64,000 nt of DNA from Escherichia coli (GCF_030384885.1 NZ_CP128613.1), one strand, 5' to 3'. Positions 11,411-25,898 are shown, numbered from the stretch's first letter. Notes: generated from the sequence alone by a model not told the origin. A program made the numbers and translations.

Positions 11411-12655
<1,245 letters not shown>

Positions 12656-12685: not shown

Positions 12686-14008
12686 TTATTCGCTGATACG
12701 GCGATAGACAGTCGGTGTGCTTTCCGGTGCTTTATCGGCAAGTTTAATTGCCGCTTTCACCGCTTTCGCCGCTTCCTGCCAGCTGTTTTCGTCTTTCGCG
12801 TGGATAACCGCCAGCGGACGCTGACCGTCTACCTGGTCGCCCAGACGCGCCATATCAGTAAAGCCGACGCTGTAATCGATGGTGTCAGATGCCTGACGGC
12901 GACCGCCGCCCATTGCAACCACTGCCATTCCCAGCGCGCGGGTATCCATTTCACTGACAAAACCTTCGGTATCAGCATAGACTGCTTTCGTCAGCATCGC
13001 TGTCGGCAGATACTTCGCGTAGTTCTCAACGAAGTCGGTCGGGCCTTTTTGTGCCGCTACCATACGACCAAAGACTTCTGCCGCTTTACCGTTGTCCAGC
13101 ACCGCCTGCAATTTCGCGCGCGCTTCGGCGTCATCTTTCGCCAGTTTGCCGGAGATCAACATCTCCACGCACAGTGCCATCGTGACATCAAACAGACGCG
13201 GGTTACGATACTCACCAGTCAGGAACTGCACCGCTTCACGAACTTCAACCGCGTTACCGGCACTGGAGGCCAGCACCTGATTCATGTCGGTGAGTAGCGC
13301 GGTGGTGCGCACGCCAGCACCGTTAGCCACGCCAACAATCGCTTCGGCAAGGGCTTCAGAGAGTTCGTAGGTCGGCATAAACGCGCCGCTACCGACTTTC
13401 ACGTCCATCACCAGCGCATCCAGACCTTCCGCCAGTTTCTTCGCCAGGATCGAGGCGGTGATAAGCGGGATGGAATCCACGGTTGCGGTAATGTCGCGGG
13501 TCGCATAGAAACGTTTATCCGCCGGAGCCAGCGAGCTGGTCTGGCCGATAATCGCCACGCCAACATCTTTAATAATTTCGCGGAAACGGTTGTCATCCGG
13601 GAAGATGTCGAAGCCAGGGATGGATTCCAGTTTGTCGAGCGTACCGCCAGTATGGCCGAGGCCGCGACCGGAGATCATCGGAATATAGCCGCCGCAGGCA
13701 GCCACCATCGGCCCTAACATCAGCGAAGTCACATCGCCGACGCCGCCGGTGGAGTGTTTATCAACAATCGGGCCATTCAGATGCAGGCTTTTCCAGTCGA
13801 GAACGGTTCCTGAATCTCGCATCGCCATGGTCAGCGAGACACGCTCCGGCATTGTCATATCGTGGAAGAAAATGGTCATCGCGAGGGCGGCAATCTGCCC
13901 TTCGGAGATAGTGTTGTCGCGAATGCCGTTGATAAAGAAGCGAATTTCTTCATCGCTCAGCGCATGACCATCACGTTTTTTACGAATAATTTCTTGTGCG
14001 AGAAACAA
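12686..14008 (-). CDS. deoA: Thymidine phosphorylase DeoA
   Basis: 440-aa ORF beginning [29 protein letters not shown]... Confidence 0.95.
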
Positions 14009-14147: not shown

Positions 14148-14927
14148 TTAGTAGCTGCTGGCGCTCTTACCGTCGCCGTGGCCCAGCGCTTTCAGCAGGC
14201 TTGCCAGCAGGCTGGAAGCACCAAAGCGGTAGTGACGCGCATCAGCCCAGTCAGCACCGAACAGTTCATCTGCAATCGCGAGATATTTCTGCGCATCTTC
14301 CGCAGTACGCACGCCGCCCGCCGGTTTGAAACCAACGGTTTTCTCTACGCCCATATCACGGATCACTTCCATCATGATGCGCGCGCTTTCCGGCGTCGCG
14401 TTCACTGCTACTTTACCGGTAGAGGTTTTGATGAAATCAGCACCCGCTTTAATGGATATTTCAGACGCTTTGCGGATCAGCGCTTCGTCTTTCAGTTCGC
14501 CGGTTTCGATGATCACTTTCAGCAGTACATTCGCTGCTGCGCAAGCCTCTTTACAGGCTTTCACCAGATCAAAACCAACCTGCTCGTTACCCGCCATCAG
14601 TGCACGGTACGGGAACACCACATCAACTTCATCGGCACCGTAGGCGATTGCCGCACGGGTTTCTGCCAGCGCGATTTCGATGTCGTCGTTACCGTGTGGG
14701 AAGTTAGTTACCGTAGCGATACGGATTTCCGGGGTGCCCTGCTCTTTCAGCGTTTTGCGAGCAATCGGGATAAAGCGAGGATAGATACAGATAGCGGCGG
14801 TATTACCGACCGGAGTTTTGGCCTGATGACACAGAGCGATCACTTTCTCGTCGGTATCGTCGTCATTCAGGGTGGTCAGGTCCATCAATTTCAGTGCACG
14901 CAGGCTGCTTGCTTTCAGATCAGTCAT
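14148..14927 (-). CDS. deoC: Deoxyribose-phosphate aldolase DeoC
   Basis: 259 aa from [26 protein letters not shown]... Confidence 0.95.
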
Positions 14928-14971: not shown

Positions 14972-14987
14972 TGTTAGTATTCTAACA
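14972..14987. promoter_or_regulatory. DeoR operator, promoter-proximal
   Basis: TGTTAGTATTCTAACA, one mismatch from the DeoR palindrome TGTTAGAA/TTCTAACA, 45 bp upstream of the deoC start. Confidence 0.6.
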
Positions 14988-15185
14988 TCGACTCCGCAAC
15001 ACACTTCGATATACATCACAATTAAGGAAATCTACTTACAAAATTGCATTACTGTAATGCGATCTGGTTCAAATAATTCACTTTCAAATGAATGCGTCAG
15101 TGGTGGCAAACGCATCAGGATCAAAGTGAACATCACGAAACTTCTTACAATGGCGCATCACCTTCGGCATAAAAAGGAACAGAAG

Positions 15186-16736
15186 ATGCCCACTTCTCAT
15201 GAAAATGCACTGCAACAACGTTGCCAGCAAATTGTCACCAGTCCGGTACTTAGCCCGGAGCAGAAGCGCCATTTTCTGGCGCTGGAAGCAGAAAACAATC
15301 TGCCTTACCCACAGCTTCCTGCCGAAGCCCGCCGCGCGCTGGATGAAGGTGTAATCTGCGATATGTTTGAAGGTCATGCGCCGTATAAACCGCGCTATGT
15401 CTTACCCGATTACGCCCGTTTTTTGGCCAACGGTTCCGAATGGCTGGAGCTGGAAGGCGCAAAAGATCTTGATGACGCACTCTCTCTGCTGACCATTCTT
15501 TACCACCACGTTCCTTCGGTCACATCGATGCCGGTCTACCTGGGGCAACTGGATGCGTTGTTGCAACCGTATGTTAGAATTCTAACACAAAACGAGATCG
15601 ATATTCGAATAAAACGTTTCTGGCGTTACCTCGACAGAACCCTGCCAGATGCCTTTATGCACGCCAATATTGGCCCGTCTGATTCGCCCATTACCCGTGC
15701 GATTTTACGGGCAGATTCAGAGCTGAAGCAGGTTTCACCTAACCTGACTTTTATCTACGATCCTGAAATCACCCCTGATGACCTGCTGCTGGAAGTGGCG
15801 AAAAACATCTGTGAATGTAGCAAACCGCACATCGCCAACGGTCCCGTGCATGATAAAATTTTCACAAATGGGGGCTACGGGATTGTGAGCTGTTACAACT
15901 CACTGCCGCTGGCGGGTGGTGGCAGTACGCTGGTACGCCTTAACCTGAAAGCCATTGCCGAGCGCAGCGAATCGCTGGATGACTTCTTTGCGCGCACTCT
16001 ACCGCACTACTGCCAGCAGCAGATCGCCATCATCGATGCGCGGTGTGAATTCCTCTATCAACAATCACACTTCTTTGAGAATAGCTTCCTGGTGAAAGAA
16101 GGGCTGATTAACCCTGAACGTTTTGTGCCAATGTTTGGCATGTATGGGCTGGCGGAAGCGGTTAACTTGCTGTGTGAAAAAGAAGGAGTTGCCGCGCGTT
16201 ACGGTAAAGAAGCCGCCGCAAATGAAGTGGGTTATCGCATTAGCGCGCAACTGGCGGAGTTTGTCGCCAATACCCCCGTGAAATATGGCTGGCAAAAACG
16301 CGCCATGTTACACGCACAGTCGGGGATAAGTTCCGATATCGGCACCACGCCGGGCGCGCGTTTGCCGTATGGCGATGAGCCAGATCCGATCACCCATCTG
16401 CAAACTGTCGCCCCGCATCATGCTTATTATTATTCCGGCATCAGCGACATTTTGACGCTCGACGAAACCATCAAACGTAATCCGCAGGCGCTGGTACAGC
16501 TTTGCCTCGGTGCCTTTAAAGCCGGAATGCGTGAATTTACCGCCAATGTCAGCGGTAACGATCTGGTTCGCGTTACCGGTTATATGGTGCGTTTGTCGGA
16601 TTTAGAAAAATATCGTGCCGAAGGTTCACGTACCAATACCACCTGGCTGGGAGAAGAAGCCGCACGCAACACTCGTATTCTGGAACGCCAGCCGCGCGTT
16701 ATAAGCCATGAACAGCAGATGCGCTTTAGTCAGTAA
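15186..16736 (+). CDS. yjjI: Glycyl-radical-enzyme-like protein YjjI
   Basis: 516 aa from [11 protein letters not shown]...; C-terminal RVTGY glycyl-radical-type motif; immediately followed by a radical-SAM activase gene. Confidence 0.85.
15573..15588. promoter_or_regulatory. DeoR operator, distal, perfect palindrome
   Basis: Perfect 16-bp palindrome TGTTAGAATTCTAACA, 601 bp from the proximal operator, consistent with the dual-promoter, looped deo control region; it lies inside the annotated yjjI reading frame. Confidence 0.6.
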
Positions 16737-17571
16737 GATTATCCCCTTCTCCTGCGTTGACGGGCCAGGTAGTCGTCTGGCTCTGTTTTTACAGGGCTGT
16801 AATCTGCGCTGCAAAAACTGTCACAATCCGTGGACAATGGGGCGCTGTAATGATTGCGGGGAGTGCGTGCCACAGTGTCCGCATCAGGCGTTGCAGATTG
16901 TTAACAGCAAAGTAGTGTGGAACGCAGCCGTCTGCGAGCAGTGTGATACCTGCCTGAAGATGTGTCCACAACATGCCACGCCAATGGCGCAATCCATGAA
17001 CGTGGACGAGGTGCTTAGTCACGTCCGCAAAGCGGTGCTGTTTATTGAAGGGATAACGGTAAGCGGCGGTGAAGCCACGACCCAGTTGCCGTTTGTGGTG
17101 GCGCTGTTTACTGCTATCAAAAATGATCCACAACTGTGTCATCTCACCTGTCTGGTGGACAGTAACGGCATGTTGAGCGAAACCGGCTGGGAAAAATTAC
17201 TCCCGGTGTGCGACGGCGCGATGCTCGATCTCAAAGCGTGGGGAAGCGAATGTCATCAACAGCTAACCGGACGCGATAATCAGCAGATTAAGCGCAGCAT
17301 CTGTTTGCTTGCAGAGCGCGGTAAGCTGGCGGAACTGCGTTTGCTGGTAATCCCTGGCCAGGTGGATTATTTGCAACACATCGAAGAACTGGCGGCGTTT
17401 ATCAAGGGACTTGGCGATGTTCCGGTACGCCTGAACGCGTTTCATGCCCACGGCGTGTATGGCGAGGCGCAAAGCTGGGCGAGCGCCACGCAGGAAGACG
17501 TTGAGCAGTTGGCTGATGCGTTACGGGAGCGCGGGGTGAGCCGGTTGATATTTCCGGCGCTGTATTTGTGA
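16708..17571 (+). CDS. yjjW: Glycyl-radical enzyme activating protein YjjW (radical SAM)
   Basis: CxxxCxxC radical-SAM motif (CNLRCKNC) plus two ferredoxin-like Cys clusters; 287 aa; overlaps the yjjI stop. Confidence 0.88.
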
Positions 17572-25811: not shown

Positions 25812-25898
25812 GCGAAGGTGGCGGAATTGGTAGACGCGCTAGCTTCAGGTGTTAGTGTTCTTACGGACGTGGGGGTTCAAGTCCCCCCCCTCGCACCA
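25812..25898 (+). tRNA. leuP: tRNA-Leu (CAG), copy 2, with one substitution in the variable arm
   Basis: Identical to copies 1 and 3 except GTGTTC in place of GTGTCC (C to T) in the variable-arm stem. Confidence 0.93.

Follow-up and report, generated by a model that had tools for sequence, protein, structure and literature searches.

Looping between the operators O1, O2 and OE of the deo operon has served as a textbook example since the 1980s. Repressor sites that lie within a reading frame and loop with a promoter-proximal operator are also known from lacO2 in lacZ and from the internal gal operator OI in galE. In the deo region the two tandem promoters carry O1 and O2 at a distance of ~600 (599) bp (PMC8053113, PMC3334521), and a third site, OE, is found ~300 bp further upstream of O1 (PMC8053113). 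[quoted passage not shown] The CytR/CRP architecture of deoP2 has been described (PMC3454398) and a deoCABD promoter has been placed 'in an upstream gene, yjjI' (PMC6389913).

Here we describe this region in a 64,000-nt stretch of E. coli DNA (the window), onto which the RefSeq annotation of strain 2013C-4282 was mapped (Table 1). The 1.5 kb around the palindromes is 100% identical to this strain, and 5423 of the 5426 complete E. coli genomes contain it. The deo genes are all on the minus strand, with deoD after deoB, and yjjI starts ~258 bp from deoC in the divergent direction. We are highly confident that the region is the classical deoCABD control region, comprising O2 at P2, O1 at P1 and OE, and that P1/O1 and OE lie antisense inside a genuine yjjI gene. 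The arrangement is that of E. coli K-12 deoCABD, with the same O1, O2 and OE sequences, the same orientation and gene order, and the same CRP-1/CytR/CRP-2 module at P2. Compared with MG1655 the identity is 98% over 1.1 kb, and the few SNPs are all outside the operators.

The locus resembles lacO2 and OI in that one stretch of DNA is both coding and regulatory. However, lacO2 and OI are located in the first gene of their own operon, on the sense strand, whereas here a promoter (P1) and two operators lie antisense in another, divergent gene. The locus is also similar to intragenic antisense promoters, since P1 starts inside yjjI and is antisense to its first ~386 nt and its 5' UTR. Unlike pervasive or spurious antisense promoters, P1 is regulated, serves a downstream operon and is conserved across genera with synonymous constraint.

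Table 1. Genes, operators and promoter elements of the deo-yjjI region (positions counted from the first base of the window).
Feature	Position	Strand	Details
deoB	11411-12634	-	downstream of deoC; RefSeq mapping
deoA	12686-14008	-	downstream of deoC; RefSeq mapping
deoC (deoxyribose-phosphate aldolase, first gene of deoCABD)	14148-14927, ATG 14927	-	RefSeq mapping and tblastn
deoO2 (DeoR operator at deoP2)	14972-14987	-	TGTTAGTATTCTAACA; deo strand TGTTAGAATACTAACA; 1 mismatch to perfect palindrome
CRP-1 of deoP2	15005-15020	-	deo strand TGTGATGTATATCGAA; from sequence and conservation
Spacer with CytR operator of deoP2	15021-15057	-	conserved AATGCAAA..TGTA on deo strand; CytR contacts predicted
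CRP-2 of deoP2	15058-15073	-	deo strand TTTGAACCAGATCGCA; 53 bp upstream of CRP-1; from sequence and conservation
Predicted yjjI promoter	15120-15151	+	FNR half-site ATCAA 15120-15124; -10 hexamer TACAAT 15146-15151
yjjI (YjjI-family glycyl radical enzyme, 516 aa)	15186-16736	+	RefSeq, PF11230, TIGR04040
deoO1 (DeoR operator at deoP1)	15572-15587	-	TGTTAGAATTCTAACA, perfect 16-bp palindrome, 0 mismatches
Conserved A/T-rich block upstream of weak deoP1 -35	15606-15625	-	deo strand CCAGAAACGTTTTATTCG; yjjI codons 141-147 (CGA ATA AAA CGT TTC TGG)
deoOE (third, upstream DeoR operator)	15851-15866	-	deo strand TGTGAAAATTTTATCA; + strand TGATAAAATTTTCACA; 12/16 consensus, 4 mismatches
yjjW (YjjW-family glycyl-radical activase)	16708-17571	+	TIGR04041 9.4e-120; RefSeq

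When up to three mismatches to the DeoR palindrome were allowed, the 64-kb window contained two sites, O1 and O2, as compared to 0.14 expected from dinucleotide shuffles, and two sites were reached in none of the 100 shuffles. OE was absent from this search of the window at ≤3 mismatches. With ≤4 mismatches four sites were found in the window and 2.1 were expected, so that the motif hit at OE is at chance level and the assignment of OE rests on its position, on the literature and on the synonymous constraint described below. A four-mismatch match to the palindrome was also seen at 25850-25865 (TGTTAGTGTTCTTACG), likewise at chance level given the 2.1 expected per window.

From start to start O1 and O2 are 600 bp apart, O2 is located 45 bp upstream of the deoC ATG and OE is found 279 bp beyond O1, where it overlaps yjjI codons 222-227. 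The published geometry therefore identifies the proximal palindrome as O2 at P2 and the distal one as O1 at P1, and the position of OE fits the published third site, an assignment that the synonymous constraint supports. In K-12 MG1655 both palindromes are present with a spacing of 599 bp; the extra base in the window is a 1-bp insertion immediately upstream of the yjjI ATG, which explains the spacing of 600 instead of 599 bp and makes no functional difference. Among the species compared, O1 and O2 are 567 to 626 bp apart, most often 600-601 bp, and exact helical phasing is thus evidently not critical at this loop size.

An earlier note on this DNA had interpreted the two palindromes as DeoR operators in a deo region with two promoters and control by looping, the distal one ~390 bp within yjjI on the opposite strand, and had pointed to K-12 for comparison. 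This interpretation fits the published spacing, the -10 elements and the CRP/CytR module, and MG1655 does carry the same two sites. The proximal palindrome is present exactly where it had been placed (14972-14987). The perfect palindrome is also there, but at 15572-15587 and 600 bp away, one base off the 15573-15588 and the 601 bp that had been given. OE was not among the sites named in that note. With deo on the minus and yjjI on the plus strand, O1 starts 386 nt into the RefSeq-annotated yjjI CDS and covers codons 129-134 (TAT GTT AGA ATT CTA ACA). The operator coordinates rest on secondary sources and sequence, and binding of DeoR is supported by the literature. No DeoR ChIP-exo data were found in the literature search, and the operator sequences were not found in the supplement of the loopometer paper.

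O1 and O2 each contain TGTTAGAAT, an extended -10 element facing deoC. The predicted -10 hexamer of P2, TAGAAT, is at 14984..14979 inside O2, and that of P1, also TAGAAT, is at 15584..15579 on the deo strand inside O1. Combining the CRP-1 center (15012.5) with the known -40.5 architecture would place the P2 hexamer at -12..-7, and transcription is predicted to start at ~15572 (P1) and ~14972 (P2). The presence of TGTTAGAAT within the operators would agree with the classical model in which the -10 regions are covered by DeoR. A generic sigma-70 scan of the window called neither P1 nor P2 because of their weak -35 hexamers, and this result was not counted as evidence for or against the two promoters. 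The A/T-rich block upstream of deoP1 is a candidate UP-like or -35 determinant of that promoter.

In an alignment of the intergenic DNA from 72 species, O2, CRP-1, the CytR spacer and CRP-2 were all conserved, and the 53-bp distance between the two CRP sites agrees with the tandem CRP arrangement of deoP2 (PMC3454398). The CRP-1 16-mer is identical to the CRP ChIP-seq site reported for yjjI/deoC in ETEC (PMC4287617). A second CRP ChIP-seq peak in ETEC corresponds to 15510-15530 (K-12 equivalent CGTACCGTCGGTCACA) within yjjI, at a distance of 544 bp from the CRP peak of deoP2. By estimate it falls a few tens of bp from O1 on the deoC side. This peak could reflect a weak but real CRP site or cross-linking via the DeoR loop.

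In the mechanism that best explains the region, for which DeoR binding, looping and the activity of P1 and P2 are known from the literature, DeoR would bind three 16-bp palindromic operators, where O2 would overlap the -10 of the CRP/CytR-controlled P2, O1 would overlap the -10 of the upstream promoter P1 and OE would act as an auxiliary upstream site. One multimeric DeoR would join pairs of sites by DNA looping and thereby repress both promoters, and deoxyribose-5-phosphate would release it. As the yjjI start is only ~258 bp from deoC in Enterobacteriaceae, P1/O1 and OE fall antisense within the first 680 nt of yjjI, a genuine and expressed gene. The same DNA therefore carries two functions, and the operators fix synonymous sites of yjjI.

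The elements that are embedded in yjjI may also act on yjjI itself. The ATCAA and TACAAT blocks upstream of the gene, 21 nt apart, were conserved in the 72-species alignment and resemble a class II promoter of yjjI that depends on FNR, the position of which is predicted; it would sit within the O1-O2 loop and beside the CRP-2 site of deoP2. For yjjI, FNR-dependent anaerobic activation and an FNR ChIP-seq peak close to the start of the gene have been reported; by coordinate conversion this peak is ~93 bp upstream of the start, in agreement with such a promoter (PMC3688515). In E. coli an inverted repeat, ATGCGT-N12-ACGCAT, is present upstream of yjjI at 15099-15122, in a region that is poorly conserved between genera among the 72 species.

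With the yjjI promoter and the first 386 nt of the gene inside the loop, and with P1 transcribing head-on into yjjI, DeoR or P1 could influence yjjI-yjjW. DeoR bound or looped at O1/OE could block or trap RNA polymerase from the yjjI promoter, as yjjI elongation must cross both sites, and when DeoR is released the convergent P1 could interfere. The adjacency of yjjI and deoC together with the embedded operators has been retained from Escherichia to Edwardsiella, which would agree with such control. However, deo regulation alone fully accounts for this conservation, many repressors are weak roadblocks, and no report on yjjI expression in deoR or operator mutants was found in the literature. We therefore consider control of yjjI-yjjW by the embedded elements possible but rather unlikely.

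YjjI is without an established function and P1-derived transcripts run antisense through the 5' end of yjjI, and one could imagine that in E. coli yjjI is decaying or has lost its function, and that the region is essentially long deo leader or regulatory DNA. This is very improbable, since 80 species have an intact, full-length frame under strong purifying selection (entropy ~0.35/0.22/1.2), and the glycyl-radical motif (VRVTGY) is conserved, with R462 and G465 invariant in an alignment of 15 sequences. The cognate activase gene, yjjW, adjoins, yjjI is directly activated by FNR in anaerobiosis (PMC3688515) and the yjjI region was found in 5423 of the 5426 complete E. coli genomes. The pseudogene reading was rejected on these grounds.

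Even less probable is that the yjjI start has been annotated too far upstream, with a gene that begins past O1 or OE and deo DNA that is intergenic. A promoter plus two operators within a CDS does look awkward, and a longer in-frame ORF exists (559 aa from 15057), so the ORF alone does not fix the start. The protein evidence nevertheless argues against a downstream start. YjjI matched TIGR04040 with 787.6 bits (cut-off 498.3), model positions 1-497 aligning to residues 11-504, and PF11230 with 731 bits, model positions 1-485 aligning to residues 22-504. When 1.8 billion representative proteins were searched without a profile, full-length relatives at 33-57% identity were obtained, which aligned from query residues ~7-23 at their own N-termini. 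In the 15-sequence alignment of homologs, E62, P66, R70, Y71, P74, D75, G83, A98, L102, Y106, V117, G120, D123 and L126 were invariant, and all 14 are encoded between the ATG and O1. Codons 1-128 had a per-position entropy of 0.40/0.28/1.27 bits (positions 1/2/3) in 82 loci, similar to the remainder of the gene, and the ATG was at the identical position in 66 of 83 loci. The homolog alignment and the coding periodicity show that the N-terminal 135 residues (ATG to O1) belong to the conserved YjjI protein. The earlier note had left two alternatives: either yjjI is expressed with a divergent promoter and operator inside it, or it starts further downstream. The first holds, and the second is refuted at the sequence level by the profiles, the homologs and the periodicity.

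The comparison comprised 80 yjjI loci of representative genomes that range from Escherichia to Proteus. In every locus with adjacent deoC an O1-like palindrome with 0-2 mismatches was located exactly at +386 of yjjI, in genera including Citrobacter, Salmonella, Enterobacter, Kosakonia, Hafnia and Edwardsiella. The four Proteus loci had no deoC within 3 kb and no palindrome at +386; there the peptide is Y-V-G-[E/N/S]-L-T and the codons are free to vary. In ~70 species the synonymous sites of codons 130 and 132-134 were essentially invariant, whereas flanking codons were variable. This codon comparison was made without seven loci of differing starts.

An unbiased scan covered yjjI of 78 species in 6-codon windows of third-position entropy, with a gene mean of 1.15 bits. 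In the raw ranking O1 was lowest (0.045) and OE second (0.109), followed by the yjjI/yjjW overlap and by the block at 15606-15623. The overlap of the yjjI 3' end with yjjW is 29 nt (16707-16736) and its third-position entropy was 0.21, as expected for dual coding; for the A/T-rich block upstream of deoP1 (15606-15625) the value was 0.25. As the raw scan also flagged windows rich in two-fold-degenerate codons, the score was then normalized by amino acid and columns were permuted. After normalization O1 (family-wise permutation p<0.0002) and OE (p=0.001) were the two most constrained windows and the only significant ones, and the block upstream of deoP1 reached p ~0.1, which is suggestive at most. 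At O1 and OE selection acts on the DNA as such, regardless of the protein that it encodes. The third-lowest normalized window was 16071-16088 (codons 296-301, TTC TTT GAG AAT AGC TTC; p ~0.095), which resembles a DeoR half-site only weakly.

There are eight rare codons in yjjI, and five of them cluster at codons 131-151. AGA131, CTA133, CGA141 and ATA142 show almost no change from genus to genus, unlike the rare codons in other parts of yjjI, which are not conserved. In distant homologs residues 131-134 (GNLT, GDLN, AGLT, NSVS and others) and 222-227 are in variable loops. That the distal palindrome is kept only for the YjjI peptide Y-V-R-I-L-T, without any DNA function, is the least probable alternative of all and was rejected: conservation is expected in a CDS, but the synonymous positions at O1 are invariant next to codons that vary freely, the O1 codons are rare ones (AGA, CTA), the residues fall in a variable loop, and in Proteus without adjacent deoC the palindrome is absent and the codons are free.

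Residue 131 is Gly (GGN) in Proteus, and in Hafnia and Edwardsiella it is Gly encoded by GGA, which gives an operator with one mismatch. In Enterobacteriaceae the residue is Arg (AGA) or Lys (AAA), by which the palindrome is completed. Given the variable loops and the pattern at residue 131, the operators arose at sites where the protein tolerates change and then imposed codons, and probably also residues. YjjI appears to have been changed by the operators at residues 131-132 (Gly131 to Arg/Lys; residue 132 to Ile). More tentative, and in our judgment doubtful, is the wider proposal that the orphan yjjI-yjjW pair is coupled to deoxynucleoside catabolism, by looped DeoR and by collision with or antisense transcription from P1, together with a rewriting of YjjI residues by the operators.

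The O1/O2/OE arrangement and the location of P1 within yjjI are already known, and our assignment is a correct re-identification; the position of P1 in yjjI is visible from genome annotation and has been noted in the literature. What we add is small, namely comparative evidence that the operators constrain and reshape yjjI, which was not found in the literature searched. The locus is a clean case of operator and promoter DNA that doubles as antisense coding sequence, where the regulatory constraint is measurable in synonymous sites, rare codons and amino-acid choice across genera. With the operators and P1 inside yjjI, recoding or deleting yjjI would therefore disturb deo regulation. The deoP1P2 fragment that serves as a standard expression promoter is 945 bp long (PMC5351984), and by arithmetic this vector fragment carries ~690 bp of yjjI coding sequence. 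The divergent yjjI-deoC junction may also be visible in a protein of 574 aa (P0004), encoded on a 2.9-kb contig, which combines PF11230 with a DeoC/LacD aldolase domain (PF01791) and has 99% identity to YjjI; this is probably an assembly or gene-calling artefact over the junction.
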